A stretch of 64,000 nt of DNA. Source: an uncultured Bacilli bacterium. GTDB taxonomy: Bacteria > Bacillota_I > Bacilli_A > RF39 > UBA660. The DNA lies in assembly GCA_934085595.1 (NCBI GenBank), contig CAKOHK010000001.1:145705-209704 (forward strand), read 5' to 3'. Position numbers and translations under genes: made by a program. The notes under the pieces were generated by a model. The model saw only the letters and a program-made list of their open reading frames with translations, was not told the origin of the DNA and searched no databases. Position 1 is the first letter of the stretch. Each line of letters starts with the position of its first letter. Below, piece after piece: positions 21,819 to 64,000 of this stretch.

Positions 21819-21842
21819 CTTGATATACCTTCTTATATTAGA

Positions 21843-21874
21843 ATTATATCATAGGGTACCCCCCCCCCCGTCAA
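21843..21874 (-). promoter_or_regulatory. Candidate promoter of P1 containing a perfect homopolymeric tract (C11 on plus, G11 on the coding strand) between the -35 and -10 elements
   Basis: Minus strand reads cgccacTTGACgGGGGGGGGGGtaccctatgaTATAAT. C11 spans 21859-21869, the -35 is cgtcaa 21869-21874, and TATAAT is 21843-21848. The spacer of about 20 nt would be tuned by tract length. Confidence 0.45.
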
Positions 21875-43630: not shown

Positions 43631-43704
43631 AACTAGACCTCTATCTTATATCTTTATTATACAATCTTTAATTAAATTAAAAAAGACCATTTTTTAAAAA
43701 TAGT

Positions 43705-45198: not shown

Positions 45199-46680
45199 TT
45201 ATTTAATTATAAATGGATTAGTGCTTTTTCCGTTTCCAGAAACAAATTTTACATCAGCATTAAGATACACAGTAGGTCTTATATTGACATCACTAGCAGA
45301 ATCTACACCATTAATATATAAAGTACCTTCACTCTGTGCAATAAGTACAGCGTGTTGGTCTATAGATTCAGGTGACAACAACCAATAAACGGTATTATTC
45401 ATCAGCCAATTAGTACTAACGCACTCATCATCTTTATAATTTCCAGAGTCTGCCCCATCATAACATACATTACTAGCATACATATAATCACTAGGATATA
45501 AAAGTCCTACTTTGCCATCCCATGTTTGACTATTTCCATCCCATACATCAGTACTTCTTTCGCGTGTATATATGCTTTCTGCTGTTCCATAACCACCAGA
45601 AGAATAAACCTGATTACCAAGGTACCATTTCGTAGTACTTATTTGACTTCTAGCTTCATCAGTTAATCCAGTAGTTGTATAATCGCACAAAGGATTAGTA
45701 TCATCATATGGATGAAAATATATTGAACACCCAAGAGGAGAATATCCATATTGTCTATTAAAATATGCTCCTTCATTTAACAAAGTCATAAGTGATGCTT
45801 TTGTCCAATCATTAACAGAGCCAGAAGCAGAACTAAAATCCCAAGCTGCTTGTCCAATAGAATCTCTAACTATTTTAACTTTGTTTTCCTTTTTATAAGT
45901 TCCATCACTCTGAGGTGTTTCTACTTCAAATAATCCAACTATTCTCCACAGTCCCTCTTCTTTATTAAATGTAATATAATTGCTAGGATCTTTCCCTTGA
46001 AATCTGTATTCAGTAGTACTATATTCCTGATTTCCTGTAGCTTCATGCGTTATAGATATTAAATCAAGTTTTTTATAATTATCTATTAAAGTTTGAGCAA
46101 GTGTAGCTGTTTGAATACTTTCTGCGACACCAAGAACACCATAAAACTTCTTTCCTTGATTATAGTTTTGCGCTTTATCAGTATAATTAACAAAACGAAT
46201 TGAAACAGTGTAAGTATGAGTTTCTCCAGGTAATATTTTTTGTGATTCTTTATATGGATACAACACTTCACCCTTATTAGCTATAGCCTCAGTAGTAACT
46301 TGTGGCACAATAACTGTAGAACCATTAACACAGCTTCCATTATCAACACCACTACTACCACAAACGCATCTAATCATAAGTTCATCTTTTTGAATCCCAT
46401 TATAAAGCTTCTGCCATCCAAGACTATAATAAGTTTCTTCATTTCCTTTGTTTTCAACAGTTATAGTTTTCGTAGTTGTCCATCCAGGCTCTATATTTTC
46501 TGCAATTATTTGATTACCATCAGTATATTTAAGTTCAAGCTTAGTAGTACCAACATCTATAGTTTCAGCCACATCATTACCACTAACAGTCTGACTAAAA
46601 TACGCATAAGTAAGCCCAACCGTTAATAAAAATGCAACTGTAAGTACACTTCCATAAATAAACTTTTTATCTTTCATCAT
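45199..46680 (-). CDS. Secreted TasA/camelysin-like protein with the shared C-terminal domain (family member P3)
   Basis: 493 aa. Signal peptide ...VGLTYAYFSQT (AYFSD-type SipW-cognate motif), then TTKLELKY...NIEPGW...ITVENKG as in TasA. C-terminal domain carries ITHEATGNQEYSTTEYRFQG, WRIVGLFEVETP, SQISTTKWYLGN and YPSDYMYASNVCY. Confidence 0.65.
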   Translation of the reverse strand: MMKDKKFIYGSVLTVAFLLTVGLTYAYFSQTVSGNDVAETIDVGTTKLELKYTDGNQIIAENIEPGWTTTKTITVENKGNEETYYSLGWQKLYNGIQKDELMIRCVCGSSGVDNGSCVNGSTVIVPQVTTEAIANKGEVLYPYKESQKILPGETHTYTVSIRFVNYTDKAQNYNQGKKFYGVLGVAESIQTATLAQTLIDNYKKLDLISITHEATGNQEYSTTEYRFQGKDPSNYITFNKEEGLWRIVGLFEVETPQSDGTYKKENKVKIVRDSIGQAAWDFSSASGSVNDWTKASLMTLLNEGAYFNRQYGYSPLGCSIYFHPYDDTNPLCDYTTTGLTDEARSQISTTKWYLGNQVYSSGGYGTAESIYTRERSTDVWDGNSQTWDGKVGLLYPSDYMYASNVCYDGADSGNYKDDECVSTNWLMNNTVYWLLSPESIDQHAVLIAQSEGTLYINGVDSASDVNIRPTVYLNADVKFVSGNGKSTNPFIIK

Positions 46681-46797
46681 CCACCTCTATTCTCTATAAG
46701 CATTATACTCTTTTATAAGCGTTCAAGTCAATACAGTTTTTGGCAAATTGCATTTTATTATTTAAATAAGTTTATATAATAGGATTTTCAAAAAAAC

Positions 46798-47615: not shown

Positions 47616-49361
47616 TTATTCTAATATAGCTTTAATTCTTCTAACCCCAGCACTACTAGCTTCCTCTTTAACTATTTTAAAATGCCCAAGTTCACTTGTA
47701 TTCTTAACATGAGGACCACCACATAATTCTTTTGAAACATCACCAATAGAATATACAGTTACCATATCAGGATACTTCTCAATAAACATACACTCAGCCC
47801 CACTATTAATCGCATCTTTCTTACTCATCTCTTCTACTTTTACATCAAGACCTTCTTTAATCCATTCATTAACTAAATCCTCAGTCTTTTGCTTCTCTTC
47901 ATCACTAAGTTTATGATCACAAGAAAAATCAAATCTCATTCTCTCTTCAGTAATATTACTTCCCTTTTGATGTACATCTTTATTTACTACAACTTTTAAA
48001 GCAGCATTTAATAAATGAGTCGCAGTATGATATTTAGTTTCCTTTTCACCATTACCACCAAGACCACCTTTAAACTGTCCACTACTAGCAGTTCTACTAA
48101 GTTCCTGATGAGCCTTATACTTTTCCTTAAAACCATCTTCATCAACTTTAATACCTTTTTCTAAAGCAAGTTCTATAGTAAGTTCAATAGGAAATCCATA
48201 AGTATCATATAATCTAAATGCACTACTAGCATCTATATCTTTTCCATCTTTAACTGTTTTTTCAAACTCTCTAAGTCCTTTTTCTAATGTTTTATTAAAC
48301 TTCTCTTTTTCATTCTTTAAAACTTCTAAAACAACATTTTTATTTTCTTTAAGTTCACTATAATATTTTTCATATTTACTAATTATTAAAGATGCTACTT
48401 TGCTTTCCCAATCACTATTTATATCTATATTTAATTTCTTAGCATGTCTTATGCTTCTTCTTATAAGTCTTCTAAGTATATACCCTTGTCCTACATTACT
48501 AGGTTTAATTCCTGCTGGATCTGCACTTATAAATACACTAGTTCTAATATGATCTGCTATTATACGCATACTTTTTTCATTACCTTCATATGGCAAAGAA
48601 GTAATTTCACATATTAAATCAATAACATCTTTCCATATACTAGATGCATAATTATCATTTACCCCTTCAAGTACACTTGTAACCCTTTCAAGACCCATAC
48701 CCGTGTCTACATTCTTATGTGCAAGTGGAACTATGCTACCATCTTCCTTATGTTCATACTGCATAAACACATCATTCCATATCTCAACCCATCTATTATC
48801 TTCAGGATCAAATACTTCTGGTACTTCTTCATCACTTCTGAAATAAAACATTTCTGTATCAGGCCCACATAACCCTACCATCTCAAGATTAGGCCACCAG
48901 TTATCCTCTTTAGTCCTAGCTATTCTCTCTTCCTTAATACCTAAACTTTTCCAAAGTTCAATAGCCTCAGTATCCTCATCAGCTATTTCATTCCCAGCAA
49001 ATACAGTAACCGCAAGTTTTTCCACTGGTATATTAAGTACTTTAGTTAAAAACTCAAAACTCCACTCAATAGCTTCCTTCTTAAAATAATCACCAAGACT
49101 CCAGTTACCAAGCATTTCAAAGAAAGTATGATGATATGAATCCCCTACTTCATCTAAATCATTAGTTCTAATACACTTTTGATAATCACAAAGTCTTTTC
49201 CCATAAGGATGCTCTTTCCCACTTAAATATGGTACTAATGGCTGCATACCAGCTGTATTAAAAAGAACAGTATTATCATTCTCTGGTACAACCGGAGCAC
49301 TAGGTATTTGCTTATGTCCCTTACTAACAAAAAAATCAATAAATAAATCTCTTACATTCAT
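47616..49361 (-). CDS. alaS: Alanine--tRNA ligase, unusually short form (581 aa) with aminoacylation and editing motifs but no C-Ala domain
   Basis: N-terminal FNTAGMQP, HHTFFEMLGNWSLGDYFK and WPNLEMVGLCGPDTEMFYF. Editing-domain HTATHLL (HxxxH) and CGGPH. Preceded by a T-box with a GCU specifier. Confidence 0.75.
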   Translation of the reverse strand: MNVRDLFIDFFVSKGHKQIPSAPVVPENDNTVLFNTAGMQPLVPYLSGKEHPYGKRLCDYQKCIRTNDLDEVGDSYHHTFFEMLGNWSLGDYFKKEAIEWSFEFLTKVLNIPVEKLAVTVFAGNEIADEDTEAIELWKSLGIKEERIARTKEDNWWPNLEMVGLCGPDTEMFYFRSDEEVPEVFDPEDNRWVEIWNDVFMQYEHKEDGSIVPLAHKNVDTGMGLERVTSVLEGVNDNYASSIWKDVIDLICEITSLPYEGNEKSMRIIADHIRTSVFISADPAGIKPSNVGQGYILRRLIRRSIRHAKKLNIDINSDWESKVASLIISKYEKYYSELKENKNVVLEVLKNEKEKFNKTLEKGLREFEKTVKDGKDIDASSAFRLYDTYGFPIELTIELALEKGIKVDEDGFKEKYKAHQELSRTASSGQFKGGLGGNGEKETKYHTATHLLNAALKVVVNKDVHQKGSNITEERMRFDFSCDHKLSDEEKQKTEDLVNEWIKEGLDVKVEEMSKKDAINSGAECMFIEKYPDMVTVYSIGDVSKELCGGPHVKNTSELGHFKIVKEEASSAGVRRIKAILE

Positions 49362-50114: not shown

Positions 50115-51860
50115 TTATTTATTATATAAAACTTTTTTAAGTTCTTCTATATCTTCAGCCATAACATTAAATCCTGACTGCATTACATCTGTATTTATTA
50201 AATTAATATTAAGTAGTTTTAATAAATCTAATGAATACATACTACTTCCAGCAGATAAAAAATTAATATAATCAGCAATTTCCAATTTTTTCTTATCAAT
50301 AAGACTATCACAAACAGCACTTGCCATCAACAATCCCGTAGCGTACTTATACGGATAATAACTATGTCTATATAAATGTCCAAGCCTACACCAGCCATTA
50401 TTATCTACTTCTTCATATTTTACATTTCCATAATATTTTCTAATTATATTACCATACTTTTCACTTAGTACTTCTTTAGTTAATTCAATATTTCTCTTAG
50501 TATTATATAAATCATCTTCAAACTCAGTATACATAGTTTGTTTAAATACAGTTGTAAAATAATTTTCTATTTCTTTACTTAAATAAAATATCTCTTCTTC
50601 TTTACTTCTAGCATTCTTACGTAAATATCTATTTAATAATATTTCATTTATAATAGATGCTGTTTCTCCAACAAATATAGTACTATCTTCGTACATAAAA
50701 GGTTGTTTCTTTTGAGATAAATAATAATTAACAATATGTCCTATTTCATGTATCATATTTTTTAAATCTACATACGATCCTCTATAATTCATAAAAGAAT
50801 ATGTATTCCAAGAAAAAGTAATTGACTGATGTTTATTTTCATCTATTACTGCATCAATATGACCATCAAATAATAATTTAACTACATCTATATACTCTTT
50901 TCCAAGAACACTAAGCGCATTTAAAATAATATTTTTAGCTTCATCTAAAGAATATTCTATTCTTAAATTACTATCAAAAGGTACATTAAAATCATATAAA
51001 TATGCTTCATCTACTCCAAGCAAACTTGCTTTAATTTTTAAATATTCATGAGCAAGATTCAAATTATTATTTACAGTTTTAATTAACTCATTTATGATTC
51101 TCGAATTAATATTTTCTTCAAATAATATTTTTTCTAAAACAGAATCATATTCTTCTAAACTAGCATTTTCTATTCTATATCCATATATTTTATTTATAAT
51201 ATCAGCAAACCCATCTAATTCTTTTTGATTAGCTTCTCCTACTATAGAATATGCCTGTTTTCTCACATCTCTATCTCTAGAAGATAAATATTTAGCAAGA
51301 TTAGATGATGTTAAAAGAATATCTTCTCCATCTATATTTATATATCCATATTTTATATCTCTAAGTATATTATTATATCTAGATACTTCTTCACTTATAT
51401 TAATATTATTATTTTTAATTTTTTCATTTATTTCATTAGACATTATATGTTTTTTTAATCTAAATAAATTACATAATGAAAATCTATATGTTTCTAATTT
51501 AGGATTTTCATCTACAAATAATAAAACTTTATCTATTCCAAGGTTTAATATCATTCTATCAATAAACATAAGTTTCGTATTAACTTCACCATTAAACTCT
51601 TCAGCATCCTTTTTTAACTTAATACTTTCTTCATCATTAATATTCTTATAATATCTTAGTGACCCATATACTAATATATTATTACTCATTTCTTTAATTT
51701 TCCATTTTTCATCAAGTACTTCTTCTAACACACTTGCGTTCATTTCTACCTTTTCATATTTTTTAATATCTTCAAGTAATAATTTAGTTTTATCTATTTC
51801 AGCATAAAATGCTTCACTACTTTCAAATAATTCATCTAGATTCCATTCTAAACTTTCCAT
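50115..51860 (-). CDS. Oligoendopeptidase F-like M3B metallopeptidase
   Basis: 581 aa. HEIGH zinc motif within MIHEIGHIVNYY and a PepF-like length. Confidence 0.7.
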   Translation of the reverse strand: MESLEWNLDELFESSEAFYAEIDKTKLLLEDIKKYEKVEMNASVLEEVLDEKWKIKEMSNNILVYGSLRYYKNINDEESIKLKKDAEEFNGEVNTKLMFIDRMILNLGIDKVLLFVDENPKLETYRFSLCNLFRLKKHIMSNEINEKIKNNNINISEEVSRYNNILRDIKYGYINIDGEDILLTSSNLAKYLSSRDRDVRKQAYSIVGEANQKELDGFADIINKIYGYRIENASLEEYDSVLEKILFEENINSRIINELIKTVNNNLNLAHEYLKIKASLLGVDEAYLYDFNVPFDSNLRIEYSLDEAKNIILNALSVLGKEYIDVVKLLFDGHIDAVIDENKHQSITFSWNTYSFMNYRGSYVDLKNMIHEIGHIVNYYLSQKKQPFMYEDSTIFVGETASIINEILLNRYLRKNARSKEEEIFYLSKEIENYFTTVFKQTMYTEFEDDLYNTKRNIELTKEVLSEKYGNIIRKYYGNVKYEEVDNNGWCRLGHLYRHSYYPYKYATGLLMASAVCDSLIDKKKLEIADYINFLSAGSSMYSLDLLKLLNINLINTDVMQSGFNVMAEDIEELKKVLYNK

Positions 51861-52041
51861 ACTACCCTCACTCTTATCTAACTAATAACTATCCAAAGTA
51901 TAGCATTTATATAAAACAAAAACAAGTATCATTAATTAGAGAATACTTATACTTTTCAGCACGAATTACAAAGAAATACATTGACAAATCGCAATAAATA
52001 AACTATAATAACAAACAACATTTGAAGGGAGAAATATTATC

Positions 52042-52626
52042 ATGTATTTAAAAGAATTAGATTTAAAAGATGGAGTAAAATGTACTTGTGAAGTATGTAA
52101 TGGAACCGGAGTTTTTAAAGGATATTCAGAAAAAGATGATATTGGTGTTTTATGTCATTATTGTAATGGTAAAGGCTATAATACTATGTATTCAAAAATG
52201 GACTCACACGATATTATGCTTGTAGAAGATGAAAAAAATAAAATCATTTACAAAGTTGTTGATGGTATTATTGAAGATAGTGTTACTTTATTTGATAAAT
52301 TACAAATAAGAGATGATATTAAATATGTTATGTATGGAATTGGTAAAATAGTATCTACAGAATGTCTTTTCGCACAAGGAGCAAATGAAATTAATCTTAT
52401 GTCTTACAAAGAATTCATTAATGGAAAATATCCATTACCTTTAATGAGGTATACTTGTCCAAAATTTTTATCAGAAAACTATGGTAATGGCGAATTTGAT
52501 AACGATTGTAAAGAGGGATATATGTTTGACTGTGAAAAGTTCGGAACACAAGAATGTTGGAAAAAGTTCTATGGTGAAGCTGAAAGTATAGAAGAAAAAC
52601 AAGCTGTATTAGAAATGATCAGATAG
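52042..52626 (+). CDS. Cys-rich hypothetical protein (CxxC...CxxC zinc-ribbon-like N-terminus)
   Basis: 194 aa. CTCEVCNGTG...CHYCNGKG. Confidence 0.4.
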   Translation: MYLKELDLKDGVKCTCEVCNGTGVFKGYSEKDDIGVLCHYCNGKGYNTMYSKMDSHDIMLVEDEKNKIIYKVVDGIIEDSVTLFDKLQIRDDIKYVMYGIGKIVSTECLFAQGANEINLMSYKEFINGKYPLPLMRYTCPKFLSENYGNGEFDNDCKEGYMFDCEKFGTQECWKKFYGEAESIEEKQAVLEMIR

Positions 52627-52644
52627 TAGTTTATAAAAAGGGGG

Positions 52645-53154
52645 GTGAGATTTAATATGGATAAAGAAATAATAAAAGAAGAAGAACTAGATAATAAAAA
52701 AGTAATTTTAAGAACAATAAAAATAAATGATACTGAATATGGAAACATCATTTTACCACACTTAACAGATCTAGAATTATTTGAAAGATATAAAAGAATT
52801 AAACCTATAGTAGTTTTTAATAGCTTATGTTACTATTTAAGAGATTATTCATTAAAAGAATTAAGAGGTCAATCATATCTATGGAATGCTCATAATGACA
52901 TAAGAAACAAAGTAGACTTATCAAATACAGAAATTCTAATGGATTTCTCATGTTATCATACTTATGGATATTACGGTTTATTTAAACCTTCTATTGCAGA
53001 AGTTTTAGAACAATTTCCAGATGAAGTTTTAGAAGAAGCAAACGCATTTTACGTGTTATCACATCCAGAAGATATTAGAGATTTAAACTTAGAAAAAAAA
53101 ATTACTGAAGCAGGATGTCATCATTCAAGAGTTAGAGCACTAGTTATAAAATAA
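52645..53154 (+). CDS. Hypothetical protein
   Basis: 169 aa. GGTGAGA RBS-like sequence upstream. Confidence 0.4.
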   Translation: MRFNMDKEIIKEEELDNKKVILRTIKINDTEYGNIILPHLTDLELFERYKRIKPIVVFNSLCYYLRDYSLKELRGQSYLWNAHNDIRNKVDLSNTEILMDFSCYHTYGYYGLFKPSIAEVLEQFPDEVLEEANAFYVLSHPEDIRDLNLEKKITEAGCHHSRVRALVIK

Positions 53155-53191
53155 CATAAGCAAAAACACACTTTAGCATTAGTGTGTTTTT

Positions 53192-54349
53192 TTACAAACT
53201 CTTTTCATTCTCCATACTCAAAGCGTATTCAAGCACATTATCAATTCCATTCAAATAATCTTCCTTACTCTGCTCTATATAAACGTCAGGCATAAAAATA
53301 ACAGGTGTAATAAACTCATCTCTTACTTCAGATTTATATTCTTCTTTTGAAGAAGCACTCCACTCATAATTAGGAGCAAAGAAACAAGAAGACGAAGAAA
53401 AACGATAACCATTATATTCTATCCAATCTGAATTACCATAGCAATTTAAAGGTGTTGATATCCCAGTTCCAATAGTAATTGCTCCAAGTTTTATTAAATC
53501 TACAAGTAGAGATTTACCAGAAGAAAACACTCTATAATCAGTCAAACATATTATTCTTTTTTTAGTCTTAATAATAAAATCAATTAAAGGTTTATTAAGC
53601 CCAGAATTACCACCAGTATTACCTCTTATATCTACAATTATTGTATCTATTTCTGATAAATCAAGTTTACTTATTTCACTCATCATATTCTCAATATTAC
53701 TTTTAAACTTATTTTGAACAGAAGAATAATTAATAATTAATTTCTTATCTTTAACACCATAAGTTCCAACATTTCCATAAGCAAATATATCCCAATCAAA
53801 CATTTCTTCTTCACTATATTCTTCATCTTTTTTAAACTCTCTAGTAATTATTCTACCATCAGTTTTTTTAAAACTCATAACTAAAGAATCAGCACCTCTA
53901 AACATAGGTATTCCAAACATTTTTTTCTTATTAAATAGTGCCTTCTCAAGTTCATATATTCTTTTCTCTTCAGTTCCATAAGTAATGACATCATCTAATT
54001 GATCTAATACATCTTTTATATCATACCCATTTATAGATATTAATTCATAACCCTTTAAATTATCAGGATAGTTTATAATAACATCTTCACCAAATATTCT
54101 AAAGTTCATCGGTATCATTTTAACATCTTCATACTTACTATGAGCATCCACTTCACCACATAATCTCTTTAAAATAACATTCATCAAATAATTAAAAGAA
54201 TAATCATCATTTATATCTTGATTAGAAACTATATTATTATAAAGTTTATCTAACTCACTTTCACTAATCTCATGCCATGGATTTACATGTTTATTTTTAT
54301 AATGATTTATAAATACATCATACATTTCTTTATATTTAATAGAAATCAT
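53192..54349 (-). CDS. S41-family (C-terminal processing peptidase-like) protein, cytoplasmic
   Basis: 385 aa. IVDIRGNTGGNSGL resembles the S41 catalytic-region motif. No signal peptide. Confidence 0.4.
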   Translation of the reverse strand: MISIKYKEMYDVFINHYKNKHVNPWHEISESELDKLYNNIVSNQDINDDYSFNYLMNVILKRLCGEVDAHSKYEDVKMIPMNFRIFGEDVIINYPDNLKGYELISINGYDIKDVLDQLDDVITYGTEEKRIYELEKALFNKKKMFGIPMFRGADSLVMSFKKTDGRIITREFKKDEEYSEEEMFDWDIFAYGNVGTYGVKDKKLIINYSSVQNKFKSNIENMMSEISKLDLSEIDTIIVDIRGNTGGNSGLNKPLIDFIIKTKKRIICLTDYRVFSSGKSLLVDLIKLGAITIGTGISTPLNCYGNSDWIEYNGYRFSSSSCFFAPNYEWSASSKEEYKSEVRDEFITPVIFMPDVYIEQSKEDYLNGIDNVLEYALSMENEKSL

Positions 54350-54450
54350 AACTTACCTCTTCAATGATATTATATCACATAAAAGAACTTTATAATAAAG
54401 TCCTTACTCTTATCACTATCATTATATTAATAGCCTTCAAATTACAATAA

Positions 54451-54678
54451 CTATCTTCTTCCATTTTGTTGAAATTGCTTTAAGGTATAATCTTCATAAC
54501 TCATTGTTTTTTGATTTGCATATGCTCTTTGATTTTCATTATATTCTTTTAAAACACCTGTAGTCACAACTGCTCTACCATAAGCATCTTCATTAAAGCC
54601 ACAAACAACTCTACTTTTTTCTGCTTGATATGCTTGTTTCTTTAATAACAATAAATATTCTTTTTCTGTCATATGCAT
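54451..54678 (-). CDS. Small hypothetical protein
   Basis: 75 aa. Confidence 0.3.
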   Translation of the reverse strand: MHMTEKEYLLLLKKQAYQAEKSRVVCGFNEDAYGRAVVTTGVLKEYNENQRAYANQKTMSYEDYTLKQFQQNGRR

Positions 54679-54743
54679 CTCCTTTAACTGTTTTATATTA
54701 TATCAAAACTATGGTAGGTGTCAACTTTCAAAAAAGCTATTCT

Positions 54744-55106
54744 TTATACATTTTTAGGAACTAATTCTTTTTTAATTTCATTTTTATTATTTCTAAGTTT
54801 CCACCAAAAACATCTAATAAAATCAAAATCATATAAAACTTTTAATACCTCTATTGGAAGAAAATCTAAGTTATAACTACAACTATTAGATGGTATAATT
54901 ACTTCTCCAATTACTTTAAAATCACCATAACTTAATGATTCAGAAGTGACTATAATATCTAAGTTTCTTTTATTAAACTCTTTTTGTAAAAAATAACCAA
55001 ATTGATTAAGTTCTGATATTGTAATATATCCTTCATTAAAAATATGCTTCTTTGATTCAATAAGTGATATTGCTACATATCCGTTTCCTAAAAAATAAGT
55101 ATTCAT
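54744..55106 (-). CDS. Hypothetical protein
   Basis: 120 aa. Confidence 0.35.
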   Translation of the reverse strand: MNTYFLGNGYVAISLIESKKHIFNEGYITISELNQFGYFLQKEFNKRNLDIIVTSESLSYGDFKVIGEVIIPSNSCSYNLDFLPIEVLKVLYDFDFIRCFWWKLRNNKNEIKKELVPKNV

Positions 55107-55328
55107 AAAACCTCCTTCATAAAATATATATTAGCTAACATTTATTATTTATTATTTTTTTACATAAGCACCATTACTGATTACTTCTCTGCCCAAGAAA
55201 TCCAGTACTTAACATACAATTAGAACATTCGCACAAATAATGCTTGGTTCGATGTACCTTAAAGGTCTTCTAACAATATCATATCATTTTTTTACAGATT
55301 TACAACAAATTATCACTTATAAAAATTT

Positions 55329-55390
55329 AAAAAGCCTAAGGCTTCTAAAGTTTCATAGGCACTTTTCAATATATAATATTGCATTATTTA
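55329..55390. repeat. Intergenic repeat A, copy 1 (hairpin-containing, about 60-80 nt)
   Basis: aaaagcctaaggcttctaaagtttcataggcacttttcaatatataatatt is about 80% identical to 57836..57900. aagcc-taa-ggctt hairpin with a T-run on the minus strand. Confidence 0.55.
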
Positions 55391-55503
55391 AAACAAAAAA
55401 GCAAGTCAGACGCATCTAACTTGCTCAGATGGGATCCGAAGATACACCATCGCCATTCACATTTATAATATACCATAATTGCAAAAATTATGCAATAATT
55501 CGA

Positions 55504-56490
55504 TCAACTTTTTATAAATTTTCGTAAAGCTGATAATTTATTCTTTGTATCAGAATATATAATCTTATTATAAATACTAATGGAAATCTTATTTCTAAAC
55601 TCCTCAATAATTTTTTCATAATCATTTACAAATTTATTAATTTCAGTTTTAGTAATTCCATACTTTTTTAATAAAACTGAAATAATAAGAACATAATCAG
55701 TAATTGTATTAAAATCTATTCCAGTACAACATATTTCATTTTCTAGATATTTAGATAATTTAGTATCAATTTGCCCGTCTTTAAATCTCACATCAAAAAC
55801 TACATCATTATGTGCAATTGAATTTCTTAATGATTTAATTAAATACATAATCTTTTCAGGAAATTTAGCATTAGTATCAAATGCAATATTTATATTCATT
55901 TCTTTATCAATTTTATTTCTAACTTTAAATTCTAAACTTTTAATTAAATCCGCAAACGTTCCTAATGTAATTATTTCAAATATACCCCAAATTGGAACAT
56001 ATCTATCTTTTGAATAAAAATGACTAACAATTTTATTTTCATTATTATAACTTCTAGATAAAGAAGAATAAATACTATTTTGTACTGATAATCTTTGCTT
56101 CATTTTCTTTTTATATTCTTCGCTAGTATTACTATTTCTATAATCAGTCATACCATTTTCATAAATAACATTAAATTCATCAGTTTTATACTCTTCAACT
56201 AACATTTGAAGTACAATATTTTTTGAAATCGTTTCTATTTGCATTATTTGTGGATATAATAAACTTTTTAACTTAGAGTCAAAATCAACTATTGAAACTA
56301 TTTCATCAAAACTAGATAAATTTATTCTATTTTGTGTATTATTAATGTATCTATAACCCTTATAACCATGATAATAACCTATATTTCTTAAACTCTTTTT
56401 ATCTTTAGTACCTCCAATAGAAATATTATGCTTTTTTCTTAAATATATCATTAAAGCATTTGTTGTTCTAACTTTCATTTTTATATTCAC
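55504..56490 (-). CDS. Abi_2 (AbiD/AbiF-like) abortive-infection family protein
   Basis: 328 aa. N-terminal LRNIGYYHGYKGYRYI matches the Abi_2 NIGYYRLSGY signature. Confidence 0.6.
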   Translation of the reverse strand: MNIKMKVRTTNALMIYLRKKHNISIGGTKDKKSLRNIGYYHGYKGYRYINNTQNRINLSSFDEIVSIVDFDSKLKSLLYPQIMQIETISKNIVLQMLVEEYKTDEFNVIYENGMTDYRNSNTSEEYKKKMKQRLSVQNSIYSSLSRSYNNENKIVSHFYSKDRYVPIWGIFEIITLGTFADLIKSLEFKVRNKIDKEMNINIAFDTNAKFPEKIMYLIKSLRNSIAHNDVVFDVRFKDGQIDTKLSKYLENEICCTGIDFNTITDYVLIISVLLKKYGITKTEINKFVNDYEKIIEEFRNKISISIYNKIIYSDTKNKLSALRKFIKS

Positions 56491-56567
56491 CTCATTTCTA
56501 CATATAGAAAAAGAGCAAAATAAATCTTATTCCTAATAAGTCACTACTTGCCCTTATTTTTTCTTAT

Positions 56568-57434
56568 TTAAATATATTTAATATTATTTCTGATATTTAT
56601 GTTTGGTATTCTTCTAACAAGAGTTTTCTGTAATTCTGTTTTTTCTCTACAAAAAGCTAAAGAATGCTGATTTTTTTCATCTTCAAAATCTTTATCTGTT
56701 AATCCATAATCATCTAATAATAACTCATGAAACGTTTTTGTAATTTCTATTTCTTTTTTATCATCATCAGTTAATTCTTTTTTTGCATCTAACTGATTAA
56801 ACTTTTCTTCATATGCTCTTATTTTTCGAGCATGTTCAAAATCCCATTGTGGAGCAGGTCCACCATAAGTATTAGGTCTAGAATGATATGGATTTCTCTC
56901 ATCGTATAATCTATCTAATTCACTTATTACTCGCATCAATTCTGCTTCCCTATGTTCTTTACTATCGATAGTTTGAAATAAAGAAATATTACCTATTTTC
57001 ATTGTTTTATAACCACTCGGTATTTTTGAACTAAAGCCCATAGGACCTTCATGATAATCAAAGTCAAATAATTTAAAGCTTCTTTCTTCGCCTAATGAAG
57101 CATATACTTCTAATCCTTCAATATCATCATTATCATCAGATATTTCAAGCTCTGATTCATTTTGTTTAAATATGTTTAATGCCCTATTATAAATATTATA
57201 CATTGCTATTCTTTTATATACTTCTAATTCTGATATAGCAGCTCTATCATTATCACTAATGTACTCTCTGATAACTGAAAATTCCAAATCTATTAAAGAC
57301 TTTAAATAGTTAATCATTGAAACATTTAGTATTCCCTTATAACCTTTCAAAAGTTCAATTAATTCTTCCCTAGTGTTTATTTTATTCCAATTCTCATTCA
57401 TTTGCATTATTTCCATTTTTAAACCTCCCTTCAT
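56568..57434 (-). CDS. Hypothetical protein (288 aa), possibly co-transcribed with the Abi gene
   Basis: Acidic, cytoplasmic, no motif. Confidence 0.4.
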   Translation of the reverse strand: MKGGLKMEIMQMNENWNKINTREELIELLKGYKGILNVSMINYLKSLIDLEFSVIREYISDNDRAAISELEVYKRIAMYNIYNRALNIFKQNESELEISDDNDDIEGLEVYASLGEERSFKLFDFDYHEGPMGFSSKIPSGYKTMKIGNISLFQTIDSKEHREAELMRVISELDRLYDERNPYHSRPNTYGGPAPQWDFEHARKIRAYEEKFNQLDAKKELTDDDKKEIEITKTFHELLLDDYGLTDKDFEDEKNQHSLAFCREKTELQKTLVRRIPNINIRNNIKYI

Positions 57435-57710
57435 CTAATCATTTATTATAGCATAATTTTTATAATTTGAAACAAAAATTGTTTTTTTGAGTATTATCTT
57501 TCAAAAGTTAGGTTTTAAATAGTTTTTCTTGTTTCAGATAATTTAATCTTATTATTTAAATTTTAAATAAACATCTCGTTAGAATAATCAAAAGATATAA
57601 AGATAATATTATTAATTATAATTCTATGTGGTTCTAGATAAGTAAGATTGGTCTTATCAATACCCCTCAAATCACCATTAATAACAATTGGCTTAACTCT
57701 ACAAAACCAT

Positions 57711-57900
57711 AAAAAGTTCAAGTAGATTTTCCTATGGTGTCCTAAGGAAAGAAGTAAAACAACTTTTAAGCAACATTTAATAGTTAGTAATAAAATAAAC
57801 TAATACAAATATATCATAAAAATTTATAAAATGAAAAAGACCTAGGGCTTCAAAAGTTTTATAGGCACATTTTAACAAATAATATACACTATTTATTGAT
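57711..57900. repeat. Intergenic repeat B copy 1 (57711-57815) followed immediately by repeat A copy 2 (57836-57900)
   Basis: B reads aaaagttcaagtag...tatggtgtcctaaggaaagaagtaaaacaacttttaagc...aatagttagtaataaa..aactaatacaaatat and is about 85-90% identical to 59463..59575. Confidence 0.55.
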
Positions 57901-58111
57901 AATTTATAGTTAAGTATCAATTTTATTGTTAGTTTTATCACTAGTTTTATCTTTATCGAATAATGATTTTTTTAATTCTTTCTAATTCATAAGTTTTTCC
58001 ATATCCATTTGGTCATATAAATATTTATAACATAATTCACTTCTAACCACATAAAAAGAGCGTAGTATTCCTTATTATATTAATAAGTCTTTACTAGCCC
58101 TTATTTTTAAT

Positions 58112-59311
58112 TTAATTATTTTTTAATACTAATTGTTCAGTACTCGTTTTTTTCTTCATATTTTCAATTGTAACTTCTGATGCATAGCTTGCCGTTTTTA
58201 ATAATTCATCATAAACAAAAGCAATTTGTTCAGGAGTAGCAGGGATTTTATCTTCATAAGTTTCTCCAGCTTTTCCATTAGTAATATTCAATCTTATATC
58301 AATTTTATCAACATTATCTCCACAATAATAAATTGCTACAACTTCACCCTTATCTGATTCAAAATTACCACTAGTTGAAAAATAATGTAAAACCTGCAAA
58401 TAATTTTCTTCTCCCAAATTATAAGATAATTGAAATGAAAATCCATCTGGGCTTCTATAATAGGTTGTTTTATTTCCTGTACTAATATCTGTTATTTCTA
58501 GCCTACAACAACCTTGTCTATATTTACCATGTTCAGAGTTATATGAGTTAGCATTAATTTTAACATTCTTTAAATAGTTACTAATCTCATCAATTTCAAT
58601 ATCGTCATTAAGAAAAGGATTAACAGCTTTATCAAAATCTAGAACAGCCTTTCTAAATATTTGTCCCAATTTTGTTTTATTATCTCTCTCAACTGAAGAA
58701 TTATAATTGTTTTTATTTTCTTTATCATCTTGCATCCAGTCATATGCGGAAATATAAGGATTTACCTTTTTTAAAATTTCAGAAGTAATCTTTGATATTA
58801 ATTCATCATACTTTTCAACTTCAGTTTCAGGTAAATTATTTTTTCTCAAGAAATAATCTTTCATTTCAGTTAAAAAGATTAATAGTCCTTCTTTTGAATC
58901 AATATGATAGGTTTTTAAATATTTATCATCAATATTTTTCCTTCTTTTGAAATTTCTTTTAGCATTTTCACATTTTGATAAATACTCATCAATACCAAGA
59001 TGTTCTTCCACATATTTTTGAATATCTTTTTCATATTTCTCATCTGTAGCCCAATCAATTGGATTCCAATCCTTACATCCTCCGTCTACTCTAATATCAT
59101 AAGGATTACCAGGATATTTTTGATAAATAATATTTGCAACTTCTAGTGGGATTCTACCATTAACTATTGTATAATAACTACCACCAAAACATATTGCGAG
59201 ATTATTCCAATAATGTACTTCTTCTATTGTACCATATCTTCCTTCAGCTGTTGACAAAGGATTATTTATACCAACAGCTTTCATAACCTCATTAAATTCT
59301 AAACGATTCAT
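58112..59311 (-). CDS. Hypothetical protein (399 aa)
   Basis: Single gene between repeat units. No motif. Confidence 0.4.
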   Translation of the reverse strand: MNRLEFNEVMKAVGINNPLSTAEGRYGTIEEVHYWNNLAICFGGSYYTIVNGRIPLEVANIIYQKYPGNPYDIRVDGGCKDWNPIDWATDEKYEKDIQKYVEEHLGIDEYLSKCENAKRNFKRRKNIDDKYLKTYHIDSKEGLLIFLTEMKDYFLRKNNLPETEVEKYDELISKITSEILKKVNPYISAYDWMQDDKENKNNYNSSVERDNKTKLGQIFRKAVLDFDKAVNPFLNDDIEIDEISNYLKNVKINANSYNSEHGKYRQGCCRLEITDISTGNKTTYYRSPDGFSFQLSYNLGEENYLQVLHYFSTSGNFESDKGEVVAIYYCGDNVDKIDIRLNITNGKAGETYEDKIPATPEQIAFVYDELLKTASYASEVTIENMKKKTSTEQLVLKNN

Positions 59312-59462
59312 TATAAACCTCCCTTGTTAATTGTTTATTGTAACACACACAATTTAAGATGTAAACATTTGCTACTCTAGATATTTTGATACAAGCATCA
59401 AAATTATCAGTGATGATTTTATTACATAAAAACGTACCTATATTTCAAACTGAAAATATATT

Positions 59463-59600
59463 AAAAGTTCGAATAGTTCAAACATATTTACTTATGGTGC
59501 CCTAAGGGAAGAAGTAGAACAACTTCTAGGGCAAAAGAAATAGTTAGTAATAACTATTAACTAATATAAGTATAACACAAATTTTCAAAAAAACATTAAA
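59463..59600. repeat. Intergenic repeat B copy 2 plus a truncated A-like start
   Basis: aaaagttcgaatag...tatggtgccctaagggaagaagtagaacaacttctagggc...aatagttagtaataac..aactaatataagtat. Here GCCCTA...GAAG...CTTC...TAGGGC forms a nested stem. Confidence 0.55.
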
Positions 59601-59657
59601 TAATGTTCATATTTAAGTAAAATATGTTATAATATCAATCACTAAGGAGGTCTTTTT

Positions 59658-60485
59658 ATGAATGCTTATGTTGAAAGTGGAATTTCTATTTTGAATGACA
59701 CTACTAAAGATTTGAAAAATTTAAATGAACTTGGAATATATTTGGCTAAACAAACTGATATTGATGCTTTAAAATCATTAAAACTTTTAATTTTAGCCTC
59801 TGAAAATTCATTATTAGATAAAGAGTTTGATATTAATAGTATTAAGTCTTATACCGAAACAATTATGCGTAATACGTATAAAAGAAATGAAACAGTAATT
59901 GGTAACTTATCTATGAATCCACAAAATATTGCTCTGGAATTAATGGACTATATTTTACATAATTATAAAGTTGATTTAACTGTTCAACCCTATGATAGCG
60001 GTTATACTGTATTCGATTTTTGGGTTCGTTCACTTGTTAGAATCGAAGATGACCAAGACATATTTTATAAAAGATATGATATGATTGATAAAAAGTTAGA
60101 AATTGCTTCGTACATGATTAGAAGTGAATTATTGAATGTTAATCAAATTGATTATTTACTAATTGCATTTGATAGATGTATACAGCGTCAACATTCTTAT
60201 ACAAAAGAACAATTGTTAAGAATGCAAGAAATGCTTAATAGTGTGAAATTAAGAGAACAATTAGAACTTAATGTTGCAAATTTAATTACTCAAAATAAAA
60301 TACAACTTAATTGTTCTAGAGATGAACTTATTAAAGGTTTATCAACGACTGGGACTCAAGTAGATCAACATTCTGGGAAAGAAGATTTTTGGGGTGAAAT
60401 ATCGAATTATCAAATGTTAAATGACCAATGTGTATATATGTTACAAACTATACCTACATTAGTTAAGAAAAAAATAATAAAATAA
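59658..60485 (+). CDS. Hypothetical protein (275 aa)
   Basis: Strong RBS aaggagg. No motif. Confidence 0.4.
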   Translation: MNAYVESGISILNDTTKDLKNLNELGIYLAKQTDIDALKSLKLLILASENSLLDKEFDINSIKSYTETIMRNTYKRNETVIGNLSMNPQNIALELMDYILHNYKVDLTVQPYDSGYTVFDFWVRSLVRIEDDQDIFYKRYDMIDKKLEIASYMIRSELLNVNQIDYLLIAFDRCIQRQHSYTKEQLLRMQEMLNSVKLREQLELNVANLITQNKIQLNCSRDELIKGLSTTGTQVDQHSGKEDFWGEISNYQMLNDQCVYMLQTIPTLVKKKIIK

Positions 60486-60618
60486 TACTATTTACACACG
60501 CTAATTGATTATGTCGATTTGCAAGTGTGTTTCTAAATTATTAAAATAAAAACTAGTTTCAATTTAATTTGAGAGTAGTTTTTATATTATCTCGAAAAGT
60601 TCGAGTTTCCTATCAATC

Positions 60619-60695
60619 TGGTGCTGAAAACAGGAATCGAACCCGCAACCTACTGATTACGATTCAGTTGCTCTACCTAATTGAGCTATTTCAGC
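60619..60695 (-). tRNA. tRNA-Thr (anticodon CGT)
   Basis: GCTGAAATAGCTCAATTAGGTAGAGCAACTGAATCGTAATCAGTAGGTTGCGGGTTCGATTCCTGTTTTCAGCACCA. Anticodon loop is auCGUaa. Confidence 0.8.
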
Positions 60696-60776
60696 ATATA
60701 TAAATTATATGACAATATTTAATAAATGTATAGATTTTTATTATTTTTTTAGATATAATTTTCATGGAGGAATAAA

Positions 60777-60977
60777 ATGGAAAAATTACATGTAGATAGT
60801 AATAAATGTATAGGATGTGGACTATGCGTAAGTATGAATGAAGAACACTTTGAGTTTAATGATGAAGGAGTAAGCACAGTTAAAATACCTGAAGTAACTC
60901 CAGAAGAAAAAAATGATTTACTTACAGTAGTTGAAAGTTGCCCTGTAGGCGCTATTACTATTGAAGAAGAAAACTAA
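60777..60977 (+). CDS. Small [4Fe-4S]/[3Fe-4S] ferredoxin
   Basis: 66 aa. CIGCGLC ... CP motif. RBS ggagg. Confidence 0.8.
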   Translation: MEKLHVDSNKCIGCGLCVSMNEEHFEFNDEGVSTVKIPEVTPEEKNDLLTVVESCPVGAITIEEEN

Positions 60978-61004
60978 ATAAAATAAAAGAACACTTAAGT
61001 TCTT

Positions 61005-61718
61005 TTATTTTGCACTATTATATAATTCTTTAACTTCTTTAGGATTTATTCTTCTATATTCACCCTTCTTTAAACCATCAAGAGTAAGAAAATCAAATCT
61101 CTCTCTTTTTAATTTAAGAACTTTATATCCAAAATAATTAAATAAGTTCTTTACTTCATGATTTCTTCCCTCAGTTAAAGTAATCATTAGATAAGATTTA
61201 TTATTTTTCTTATCTATTTTTTTAAGTTTAATTTTACACCTCTTTGTTTTAACTCCATCAATTACAACACCTTTTTCTAAAGTTTTAATCTCAGGTACTT
61301 TTATTATTCCATCTATCTTAACACTATATTCTTTTTCAATATCATTTTTAGGATGTGTTAAAAGATTAGTAAGTTCTCCATCATTAGTTAATATTAAAAG
61401 CCCACTAGTATCATAATCAAGTCTACCAACAGGAAATATTTTAGCTTCACTATTAATAAGTTCTATAACAGAAGTTCTTCCTTTTTCATCTTTAGTAGTA
61501 GTAACAACTTTCTCTGGTTTATATAAAAGAAAATACTCTTTATCCTCATAATTTATAACATTACCATTAACCATTACCAAATCTTTTGAAGATACTTTAG
61601 TTCCAAGTTCTCTTACAACTTCACCATTTACACTTACTTTTCCATTTTTAATTAACTCTTCACTCTTACGTCTTGAAGCAACCCCACATTTACTTAAATA
61701 TTTTTGTAATCTTTCCAT
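61005..61718 (-). CDS. Pseudouridine synthase, RsuA/RluB family, with an N-terminal S4 domain
   Basis: MERLQKYLSKCGVASRR is S4-like and GRLDYDTSGLLILTNDG is the catalytic motif. The ORF-track N-terminal extension to 61769 is probably not translated. Confidence 0.85.
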   Translation of the reverse strand: MERLQKYLSKCGVASRRKSEELIKNGKVSVNGEVVRELGTKVSSKDLVMVNGNVINYEDKEYFLLYKPEKVVTTTKDEKGRTSVIELINSEAKIFPVGRLDYDTSGLLILTNDGELTNLLTHPKNDIEKEYSVKIDGIIKVPEIKTLEKGVVIDGVKTKRCKIKLKKIDKKNNKSYLMITLTEGRNHEVKNLFNYFGYKVLKLKRERFDFLTLDGLKKGEYRRINPKEVKELYNSAK

Positions 61719-61776
61719 TTTAAACACCACCACAATTTTATCAAAAAAATAGAAATAATTAAATATCATTTCTAAT

Positions 61777-62424
61777 TTATTTTTTTAATTTAGGACATAC
61801 CCCATACATTCTTTTATCTTTATCTAGTGCTTCTTCTCTACTTATAAGTCCAAAATATGCCGGCTTACACTTATCTTTTTCACTTTCATCTTTTGCTGGA
61901 TACTTTCTATTACAACTTTCACACGTTAAATAATACTTATATTTAGGATTAGAATCAGTTAAAATAGTTCTAAAGTATTCACAATCACAGCATCTTACTT
62001 CATTAACTTTATATTTATTGCCTTTTCTAAGTATATCAGAACTACTAACTTCATCAAAATCAGGAACTTTAATAGAAGGTAAATCAAGTATCAAATCAGC
62101 AAGTCTATCAGAACCATTTTCAATTAAAGTTGAAGCACTTTTAACCATATTTGAAAGTTTGCCATATATTGATTCCAAAGTACCTTTTTCATCAGTAAGT
62201 TTTTTTAATCTAGATATAACTCTTCCCTTTTCATCAAGTGTAACATTAGGCATAAACTTAATATTTTTACATACAAAACCAATAATATACATCTTTTCTT
62301 CCATATTATTTCCAAATACTGTAAAAGTATCTAAAAAATCATATAAATTCATATCACCAGAATATGTAATACCTTTTTTAAGTATCATTGCATCTAAATA
62401 TACTCTTCTTTTATTATCTATCAT
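61777..62424 (-). CDS. Cys-rich hypothetical protein
   Basis: 215 aa. C-terminal CCDCEYF...CESCNRKY...CKP...CPK cysteine cluster. Confidence 0.4.
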   Translation of the reverse strand: MIDNKRRVYLDAMILKKGITYSGDMNLYDFLDTFTVFGNNMEEKMYIIGFVCKNIKFMPNVTLDEKGRVISRLKKLTDEKGTLESIYGKLSNMVKSASTLIENGSDRLADLILDLPSIKVPDFDEVSSSDILRKGNKYKVNEVRCCDCEYFRTILTDSNPKYKYYLTCESCNRKYPAKDESEKDKCKPAYFGLISREEALDKDKRMYGVCPKLKK

Positions 62425-62478: not shown

Positions 62479-64000
62479 TTACTTAATTATAAACGGACTA
62501 TTACTGCTTCCATTACCTGAAACATAAGATGTATTTGCATCAAGGTATACTGACGGACGTACATCAACATTTGAAAGAGTAACTTCATCAGAGCCTAAAT
62601 TACCACTACTACCAACATACATAACACGAATCATACCAGAAGTTGGTGATATATTCCAAAACCAATTACTAGATGAATACATCCAGTCAGTATTTATGCA
62701 AGTTTCATTTCTATAATCATAGCTTGAACCACTATAACTAAATCCATACATTGTATCATTATTATAGCATCCACTACTTGCATACATATAATCACTTGGA
62801 TACACAAGTCCTACTTTTCCATCCCACGTTTGATTATTTCCACTCCACACACTTGTACTTCTTTCTTGAGCATACAACGCTTTTGTATTTCCATAGCCAA
62901 CACTATTTGTCCAAATCGCATTACCTAAATACCACTTTGTACTACTTATTTGATTTTTAGCTTCATTTGTTAAACCATTACTTGCGTATGTAGCAGTTTT
63001 ATTATAATAATCTCCACTATTTAGTACTCCCATTAATGATGTAATTGCCCAGTTATTATAATTGGATCCTGTTTTTGATGTATTCCACGCTTGTGTACCT
63101 ATGGAATCTCTTATTAACTTCACTTTATACTCTTTTGCGTATCCACTACTACTAGGTGTTTCTACTTCAAACACACCAACAATTCTCCACACTCCAGTTT
63201 CACCATTAAATGTTATATAGTTATTTGGGCTTTTTCCTTGATATCTATATTCAGTTGTTGCATAATTTTGATTTCCTGTTGCTGATTGTGATATTTTAGT
63301 TAGTCCTAAAGTACCATAACTTAGCATCAAATAATCACTAAACTTATTATATTCTTCAAAATACAAACTACATTTAGTTTGTTTAAAAGTATTTATAGTC
63401 AAATCATTAGTTTTCGCATCATATTTCACAGTTGCATTATTTGTACAAGTATAATTAACAAGATTATATTTTTTATTACTATCAAGTTCATCCACTCTAG
63501 TATTATCTACATAAAAAGCAGTTGTCTCATAGTCATAATGTAAATAGTTTGTATCTATTTCTGTGTATGTATCAAGTACTTTCACTTCCTCTACATCATT
63601 AAATAAATATCCTCCAAAGACCATAAGTGATAATGTTTGTTTTCTGTTACTTTTATTTTTAATCGTAAGTGATATTGTTCTTTTAGTAAGTATTCCACCT
63701 AGTGATGGTTCTAAATAATCACCCGCATATCTGATTTCTAAGTTGGTGTTATTTAAATATGCTAATTTATAATTTGATGATATTGCATTTAAACTAGTTA
63801 TCTCTACTGTATGTTCCATTTCACCAGGTTCCATCTCTATTGAATACACATTATTTCCATCTATTTTTATAGAATATAAAAGCTCTGAAATATACATTTC
63901 ATTACTTCTATAACTTTCACTATTTATAGTAAACTTAGCATAACTTAGTGCTAGTACTGGACATAAACTTATCAACACTAAAACTATAAAAATGTTTTTC
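62479..64000 (-). CDS. Secreted TasA/camelysin-like protein with the shared C-terminal domain (family member P4). Its 5' end runs off the window
   Basis: ...KNIFIVLVLISLCPVLALSYAKFTINSESYRS... N-terminus is about 70% identical to P1. C-terminal domain carries LTKISQSATGNQNYATTEYRYQG, WRIVGVFEVETP, NQISSTKWYLGN and YPSDYMYASSGCY. The true start lies beyond 64000. Confidence 0.6.
   Translation of the reverse strand, partial: KNIFIVLVLISLCPVLALSYAKFTINSESYRSNEMYISELLYSIKIDGNNVYSIEMEPGEMEHTVEITSLNAISSNYKLAYLNNTNLEIRYAGDYLEPSLGGILTKRTISLTIKNKSNRKQTLSLMVFGGYLFNDVEEVKVLDTYTEIDTNYLHYDYETTAFYVDNTRVDELDSNKKYNLVNYTCTNNATVKYDAKTNDLTINTFKQTKCSLYFEEYNKFSDYLMLSYGTLGLTKISQSATGNQNYATTEYRYQGKSPNNYITFNGETGVWRIVGVFEVETPSSSGYAKEYKVKLIRDSIGTQAWNTSKTGSNYNNWAITSLMGVLNSGDYYNKTATYASNGLTNEAKNQISSTKWYLGNAIWTNSVGYGNTKALYAQERSTSVWSGNNQTWDGKVGLVYPSDYMYASSGCYNNDTMYGFSYSGSSYDYRNETCINTDWMYSSSNWFWNISPTSGMIRVMYVGSSGNLGSDEVTLSNVDVRPSVYLDANTSYVSGNGSSNSPFIIK

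Follow-up and report, generated by a model that had tools for sequence, protein, structure and literature searches.

An Abi_2 gene, an OLD pseudogene and three orphan gene families beside tRNA-Thr in an uncultured Bacilli bacterium: a probable mosaic variable region

The Abi2, AbiD and AbiF proteins have been placed in the HEPN RNase superfamily by the study that also provides the definition of the Rx4-6H motif (PMC3710099), and residues R210 and H215 have been described as essential in PbAbiF (PMC12373285). In C. difficile the abiF gene is preceded by a terminator and an AGGTGA ribosome-binding site, with no promoter, and its leader is an antitoxin RNA with abiF motifs (RF03085); this RNA motif typifies a subset of the Abi_2 family and not the whole Pfam family (PMC12373285). 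The OLD nucleases are established defence proteins (PMC10568477, PMC12392090). Genes of both kinds have been identified in a small region (about 6 kb, positions 54400-60700) on the 3' side of a tRNA-Thr(CGT) gene, within a 64-kb stretch of DNA (hereafter the window) from an uncultured Bacilli bacterium (GenBank assembly GCA_934085595.1). The recognisable defence systems of the region are one intact gene (AbiD) and one pseudogene (OLD); the PADLOC search gave no other match below E 0.006.

With a probability of roughly two in three, the region is a small, mosaic and partly decayed tRNA-side variable region, in which resident orphan genes are accompanied by Abi_2 and OLD genes inserted behind their terminators. 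The backbone would be formed by three resident monocistronic genes from the list of open reading frames (ORFs): p275 (59658-60485, plus strand, 275 amino acids (aa)), p399 (58112-59311, minus strand, 399 aa) and p288 (56568-57434, minus strand, 288 aa). An OLD gene would have been inserted directly behind the terminator of p399 and later have decayed to a pseudogene, and an Abi_2 gene directly behind the terminator of p288, where it remains intact. The anchor of the region is the tRNA-Thr(CGT) gene at 60619-60695 on the minus strand, recognized by ARAGORN and by the Rfam tRNA model (68.8 bits). A preliminary description of this DNA had reported an Abi_2-family gene of 328 aa and unknown genes of 120, 288 and 399 aa on the minus strand and of 275 aa on the plus strand, next to this tRNA; all of these ORFs, as well as the tRNA, have been found at the positions and on the strands it gave.

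The Abi_2 ORF covers positions 55504-56490 of the minus strand in the mechanical ORF list. Its family assignment is borne out by a match to Pfam Abi_2 PF07751 (E 3.6e-31; 109.3 bits against a cut-off of 25.6; model positions 2-184 of 184), to PADLOC AbiD (1.9e-28) and to phrog_2158 (“abortive infection resistance protein”), and the motif LRNIGYYHGYKGY is confirmed inside the ORF. The HEPN Rx4H motif is present as RNSIAH at residues 222-227; it is conserved in a relative locus (L043), and its counterpart in the alignment with the solved Abi family protein 8VZ6 is RNSCCH. The equivalent R and H residues have been described as necessary for AbiF activity (PMC12373285). Translation probably begins at the ATG at 56478 (gene 55504-56478, 324 aa) rather than at the GTG at 56490, because the L043 copy has 324 aa and a GAGGTG ribosome-binding site precedes this codon. 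The two proteins are 94% identical, and since their genes differ by 33 synonymous and 18 nonsynonymous codon changes, the window copy is, on this comparison, intact and under purifying selection. It ends in an intrinsic terminator at 55399-55426 (minus strand; a 12-bp stem, then a T-run). Full-length relatives with 30-36% identity are found in Streptococcus satellite phages, Streptococcus phages and Enterococcus plasmids, a distribution that would be expected of a mobile defence gene. The gene is a new and divergent addition to a known family. By analogy with AbiD1 and AbiF, its product would be a toxic HEPN RNase that arrests infected cells. The abiF RNA motif (RF03085) gave no match at E up to 1 in positions 52000-62000, nor at E up to 10 in positions 56440-56640. 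No record contains the exact window sequences of p399 and Abi_2; the species is present only as short contigs with 99-100% identity.

The second defence gene is represented by a pseudogene of an OLD/GajA-like protein (ABC-ATPase and TOPRIM nuclease) at 57907-58033 on the minus strand, located by tblastn with an intact gene of 391 aa from locus L029. Two fragments are left, codons 1-18 with the Walker A motif GPNGYGKT (58033-57980) and codons 326-344 (57963-57907); about 300 codons between them are deleted and three in-frame stops are present. The intact genes of L029 (391 aa) and L100 (389 aa) contain Pfam AAA_21 and OLD-like_TOPRIM domains and match the PADLOC models PDC-M01A, GajA, AriA and PtuA; no sequence relative has been found in the PDB. 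There is no GajB-type UvrD-like helicase beside OLD in L029 and L100, where the neighbours are p399 and the repeats described below. The 677-nucleotide (nt) spacer between p399 and p288, in which both fragments lie, also holds, at 57518-57706 (minus strand), what is left of a 170-aa coiled-coil gene (73% identity over 64 aa by tblastn, one in-frame stop, E 4e-20); this gene is intact upstream of p288 in L043.

The spacers within the region are indeed long, as noted before (397, 677 and 346 nt), but AT-richness does not distinguish them, the whole window having only 20-32% G+C, and they are not simple filler, as they hold the OLD pseudogene, the remnant of the 170-aa gene and the repeats. With 24-27% G+C, the region shows no compositional anomaly against the rest of the window.

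The three orphan genes belong to large families. A total of 216 homologues have been collected for p275 (60-99% identity among the matches listed), 153 for p399 (42-99% among the matches listed) and 167 for p288, with 50 metagenome loci in addition and identities down to about 30%. With few exceptions they are full-length, and one group of gut metagenome-assembled genomes (MAGs) is the source of them all, with names such as “Firmicutes bacterium CAG:321”, “Mollicutes bacterium” and “Bacilli bacterium”; the identities form a smooth gradient across this deep lineage. No full-length relative of the three proteins has been found in GenBank phages, IMG/VR contigs or PLSDB plasmids. The family profiles have no match in the PDB, and no Pfam family recurs across the family members. 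The statement that the unknown genes of the region lack recognisable homology holds, p75 (a small ORF introduced below), p120, p288, p399 and p275 all remaining below threshold in Pfam, PADLOC, PHROGs and NCBIfam; BLASTP reveals no paralogy among the proteins of the region. On the breadth of these families, p275, p399 and p288 are best described as conserved families restricted to an uncultured gut Bacilli/“Mollicutes” lineage and not as sporadic cargo. The earlier view of these three as rare single-gene cassettes has thus to be given up, and their candidacy for novel anti-phage functions is weakened by the lack of full-length phage or plasmid relatives, by housekeeping neighbours and by the missing PADLOC matches; among the genomes sampled, none of the three is consistently tied to phage defence. 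The predicted fold of p399 is very confident, with no solved relative. A promoter-like site of its own has been found for p275 at 59606-59633.

Two further observations concern the p399 family. Residues 36-154 match a 157-aa hypothetical protein of an Aneurinibacillus megaplasmid (NZ_CP116888.1; L103 3872-4345) with 32% identity and E 2e-4, which suggests that the N-terminal domain of p399 may exist alone outside the lineage. Apart from this weak match no phage or plasmid hit has been obtained, and such an origin of the orphan genes has been rejected. A distant paralogue of 341 aa is encoded near infC-rpmI-rplT at L046 18333-19358, and also in L047 and L048 (22-24% identity over about 275 aa, E 1e-15 to 1e-18); the p399 family is therefore broader than its form of about 400 aa.

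Three repeat families, named D7·D1, D4 and D2, are each present in exactly two copies in the region and nowhere else in the 64-kb window. They frame two collinear tandem units, in which D7·D1 is followed by an orphan (p399, or the 170-aa remnant with p288), D4, a defence gene (the OLD pseudogene, or Abi_2) and D2. All copies lie on the minus strand. D7·D1 copy b (59463-59609) has been delimited by repeat search, nhmmer (E 7e-37) and alignment with the tRNA-Thr flank, and copy a (57702-57831) is 77% identical to it over 121 nt. The D4 hairpin at 58037-58111 terminates p399 and is paralogous to the p288 terminator at 56491-56569. D2 copy b (57826-57895) carries a short terminator-like hairpin and its counterpart stands directly after OLD in L029; D2 copy a (55319-55390) marks the end of the block in common with L043 (block end 55317).

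D4 is the orphans' own terminator and accompanies them even where a recognisable defence gene is missing, as behind p399 in L099 and behind p288 in L049 and L051. Only about 24-30 nt separate the end of its T-run from the start codon of the OLD or Abi_2 gene (about 30 nt for Abi_2). This leaves no room for a promoter, so that both genes would be expressed by terminator read-through. The basal expression of Abi_2 would thus depend on leakage through the p288 terminator and would probably be kept low, given the distance of only about 30 nt between T-run and start codon.

The D7·D1 element is composed, on the minus strand, of a conserved extended -10 box (TGnTATAMT) and a body of about 73 nt ending in GCACCA. 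Further copies have been found at L029 12509-12696, L043 9136-9281, L039 9813-9950, L050 696-828, L080 5769-5863 and L100 9424-9546; those of L029, L043 and L050 end in the same hairpin as genuine tRNA genes, a hairpin that is degenerate in both window copies. A gene for a tRNA-sized RNA, or a displaced copy of a tRNA 3' end, would be laid out in this way. ARAGORN detects no cloverleaf and Rfam gives no match, RF00005 included, and the RNAalifold consensus reaches -1.3 kcal/mol with almost no covariation; D7·D1 as a tRNA or a structured RNA is accordingly unsupported. The element is an unproven candidate for a recombination scar or a secondary attachment-like site. Its position at the module boundaries suggests that the patchwork may have been built and reshuffled by recombination at these sites, which mimic the 3' end of a tRNA. 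An integron-like array has been considered and rejected, as there is no IntI integrase and the repeats are three different collinear segments (promoter-like, terminator and terminator), not attC sites.

The variability of the locus becomes apparent from its relatives, which are metagenome contigs fetched through the proteins of the region itself and numbered with the prefix L. Gene content differs between related genomes, with OLD intact, dead or absent and with different outer flanks. The content at the tRNA-Thr flank is thus not identical in all relatives, and the idea of a variable region, put forward in the preliminary description, survives the comparison. About 9 distinct contexts have been sampled for p399, about 18 for p288 and 2 for p275. 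The last gene is absent from the junction of tRNA-Thr and p399 in L029 and from that in L100, and adjoins the thymidylate kinase gene tmk in L039-42.

The contexts of p399 can be ordered by its identity. In L029-34 (p399 88% identical) the same tRNA-Thr(CGT) stands directly before p399 and OLD follows it. The gene lies between WhiA and PRK-GAPDH in L099 (82%), between KilA-N and RsgI_M genes in another context (68%), between an integrative mobilisable element (IME) and OLD in L100/101 (55%), between tmRNA and HD in L035 (51%), with AAA_14/DUF4143 in L102 (48%), and behind tRNA-Thr(GGT) and HD and before an M3 peptidase gene in L037 (45%); the window itself, with OLD as a pseudogene, and the distant paralogue near infC in L046 complete the series. 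OLD thus follows p399 in 3 of 9 contexts (L029, L100 and, as a pseudogene, the window) and is absent in 6 of 9, among them the WhiA/PRK/GAPDH, tmRNA/HD/SHMT and HD/M3 contexts. The Peptidase_M3 gene directly after the p399 homologue of L037 and L038 is 63% identical to the window gene at 50115-51860. This suggests that the adjacency of p399 and M3 in L037 is likely ancestral, and that everything between both genes in the window may be secondary.

For p288 two patterns can be distinguished. In relatives at least 78% identical (L043-45 and L049) Abi_2 comes directly after p288, in the arrangement of the window, and the block of D2 copy a, Abi_2 and p288 (window 55317-57478) is 91.6% identical to L043, with different outer flanks. 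At identities of 68% or below, Abi_2 is absent beside p288 in all 23 loci with flanking sequence. The immediate neighbours of p288 (n=34, from 14 distinct distant contexts) have housekeeping functions in the great majority of cases (among them GyrB, ScpB, thymidylate kinase, PPIase, NlpC/P60 and ABC transporters), and the order tRNA-Glu, p288, two unknown genes, Asp/Glu racemase and GlyRS recurs in many distant loci. Homologues of both p399 and p288 are often located just downstream of tRNA or tmRNA genes.

The broader surroundings have been followed through the RluB pseudouridine synthase gene, whose neighbourhood is found only in MAGs of uncultured gut “Bacilli”, “Mollicutes” and “Erysipelotrichaceae”, with at most 67% identity. 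In these, RluB and ferredoxin are conserved and followed by a stretch of about 5 kb and a tRNA cluster, synteny breaking right after the ferredoxin gene. None of the region genes, nor the S41-like and M3 genes, occurs after RluB-ferredoxin there, and these relatives are too distant for a presence/absence test.

A mobile element is found at the tRNA side in relatives, at a site that is unoccupied in the window. This site (60491-60624, minus strand) consists of the CCA end of the tRNA with the CTCGAACTTTTCGAG hairpin (60591-60624), a second hairpin of 48 nt and the terminator region of p275 (60491-60547). An IME of 3.6 kb, 94% identical between two different species, is present in L100/101 and in L039-42 (L100 3254-6874; L039 10833-14451). 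Its genes encode a protein of 88 aa, a large serine recombinase of 613 aa, split into ORFs of 254 and 231 aa in L039 and L040, and a Mob_Pre relaxase of 413 aa. At one junction, 33 nt are identical to window 60591-60623 (L100 3254-3286 corresponds to window 60623-60591 at 100%), and at the other end L100 6820-6876 corresponds to window 60547-60491 at 93%. In the window and in L029 the two flanks are only 44-48 nt apart, the 48-nt hairpin segment lying between them. The IME of L100 lies right after the tmRNA gene, insertions being found behind tmRNA or tRNA-type terminators, and L043 bears an 84% identical relic of the IME end just downstream of Abi_2 and D2. Neither D7·D1 nor the 33-nt IME target has been found in viral contigs.

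The strongest alternative is that each orphan and the defence gene behind it constitute a two-gene system (p399-OLD and p288-Abi_2), the orphan acting as a sensor, regulator or antitoxin; the window would then contain one live system and one decayed system whose harmless partner, p399, has survived. Such a system would indeed be expected to decay by losing its toxin while keeping the partner. The same order of p399 and OLD, 58-79 nt apart, recurs at 88% (L029) and 55% (L100/101) identity of p399 and in the pseudogene of the window, four contigs with different outer flanks keep Abi_2 behind p288, and the two pairs share a non-coding scaffold, with no space for a promoter before either defence gene. 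This explanation is nevertheless unlikely. Most p399 contexts (6 of 9) do without OLD, the 23 distant p288 loci with flanking sequence all lack Abi_2, with housekeeping genes as neighbours, and an obligate partnership of p288 with Abi_2 has been rejected from the set of 50 metagenome loci. The supposed partners have also diverged discordantly, OLD being 75% identical between L029 and L100 against 53% for p399, and Abi_2 94% between the window and L043 against 84% for p288. Moreover, a terminator separates them, and Abi_2/AbiD and class 1 OLD are known as single-gene actors (PMC3710099, PMC12392090). The preliminary description had favoured another view, namely a horizontally acquired defence island with p275, p399, p288, p120 and p75 as stand-alone anti-phage genes. 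The tRNA adjacency, the variability between relatives, Abi_2 with the OLD remnant, the frequent position of p399 and p288 homologues behind tRNA or tmRNA, the very changeable p399 neighbourhood and the absence of p120 and p75 from every fetched locus are all compatible with it; this much of the hotspot idea, together with the IME site, can be retained. Its remainder is rather improbable, as the region has neither a compositional anomaly nor an integrase (no recombinase or integrase ORF in 54400-60700 by ORF list and Pfam scan), and the three large unknowns are conserved along a smooth identity gradient, without full-length phage, viral or plasmid relatives or PADLOC matches, p288 even in stable synteny with tRNA-Glu, racemase and GlyRS across many contigs.

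Very improbable is the proposal that D7·D1 is a functional tRNA-sized small RNA regulating the orphan genes, for instance an RNA antitoxin. The extended -10 box, the body of about 73 nt ending in CACCA, the tRNA-type terminator in L029, L043 and L050 and the occurrence of seven copies in at least five genomes, always beside p275, p399-OLD or p288 units, would fit such an RNA. Against it stand the missing tRNA and Rfam matches, the negligible consensus fold with almost no covariation, an outer stem that is not kept between copies, the degenerate terminator hairpin of both window copies and an orientation towards p275 opposite to that towards p399 and p288. There is likewise a slim chance that the two tandem units represent an undescribed modular arrangement, in which an orphan, as sensor or antitoxin, is coupled through a leaky terminator to a swappable toxic effector (a compact OLD nuclease or an Abi_2 HEPN RNase), with D7·D1 recombination sites or small RNA genes as bounds. 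The reading preferred here, of resident orphans with defence genes inserted behind them, has its own weak points. The function of Abi_2 in the window is predicted solely from homology, and the missing RF03085 motif may mean that its regulation differs from the model or that a divergent RNA was overlooked. The putative resident status of the orphans is drawn from family breadth and from the neighbourhoods in the contexts sampled (about 9 for p399, about 18 for p288 and 2 for p275), and the p399 neighbourhood differs in almost every genome sampled, as for a mobile accessory gene. Finally, that p399-OLD recurs at both 55% and 88% identity could be a sign of a functional pair instead of repeated co-location.

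As a whole the region is ordinary and unsurprising, and its value is largely one of annotation. From a gut lineage that is uncultured and has been little studied, it contributes a chromosomal Abi_2 gene of divergent sequence, and it illustrates the gain and decay of defence genes at a hotspot beside a tRNA. The orphans deserve attention as conserved, uncharacterised families and not as probable new defence systems; these three sizeable families without a known domain are good targets for functional study in organisms that abound in the gut. Two unrelated toxic defence genes are placed within about 30 nt of a resident gene's terminator, which suggests a simple and general way to keep expression minimal, and the shared scaffold with its repeats resembling tRNA ends hints at movement of small defence modules without a resident integrase.

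Several other features of the window deserve mention. The region contains two small minus-strand ORFs, p120 (54744-55106, 120 aa) and p75 (54451-54678, 75 aa), the latter absent from the preliminary description. There are 55 representative homologues of p120, of about 115-135 aa, with no family or PDB match, and neither ORF has a counterpart in any relative locus fetched. A perfect sigma-70 consensus promoter (12/12; TTGACA, 16 nt, TG-n-TATAAT) at 54697-54724 on the minus strand, directly upstream of p75, is by far the best promoter match of the region. The boundary gene called S41-like exists, with the label resting on a sub-threshold Pfam match (22 bits against a cut-off of 24). Between it and the M3 gene lie two plus-strand ORFs (52042-52626 and 52645-53154), found in no fetched locus; CxxC-x-G motifs of zinc-ribbon type and weak matches to DnaJ_CXXCXGXG and anti-TRAP occur in one of them, and the other, of 169 aa, has no match. 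Two ORFs of 581 aa (47616-49361 and 50115-51860) show no mutual BLASTP match. Four large paralogous ORFs (62479-63978, 20304-21848, 41633-43645 and 45202-46686) have in common a C-terminal region of about 280 aa, rich in Ser, Asn, Gly and Tyr, with 48-64% identity, and a fragment of a fifth is located at the window start (2-160); they probably form a multigene family of surface or secreted proteins.

In comparison with the described systems, the Abi_2 gene resembles AbiD, AbiD1 and AbiF, including the AbiF of C. difficile prophage phi027, and the solved protein 8VZ6 in its full-length domain, its Rx4H motif, its size of about 320 aa and its encoding as a single gene. As for C. difficile abiF (PMC12373285), a terminator hairpin and a GAGGTG ribosome-binding site precede it with no promoter between. 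However, it is at most 36% identical to any annotated phage or plasmid Abi_2 and is chromosomal, unlike plasmid and prophage Abi genes. In contrast to the RNA-antitoxin AbiF systems no upstream RF03085 motif has been detected, and the hairpin before the gene is the terminator of the protein-coding p288, with a paralogous hairpin after p399. The OLD relatives of L029 and L100 have the domains and PADLOC matches of class 1 OLD, of GajA of Gabija and of AriA/AriB of PARIS, whereas the window holds two stop-ridden fragments with no intact reading frame; these relatives also differ from GajA in their short length (389-391 aa) and the lack of a GajB partner, and from known OLD systems in having the uncharacterised p399 upstream. 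The element of L100/101 and L039-42 corresponds to integrative mobilisable elements with a large serine recombinase and Mob_Pre, and the window differs from these relatives in lacking it. With defence islands and integration hotspots beside tRNA or tmRNA genes (Makarova et al. 2011, cited in PMC3710099) the region shares its variable content, tRNA-side position, defence genes, decay and an IME at the same site in relatives. It departs from typical islands in its size of about 6 kb, its single intact recognisable defence gene and the lack of an integrase and of a compositional anomaly, and most of its coding capacity belongs to lineage-conserved orphans and not to cargo.

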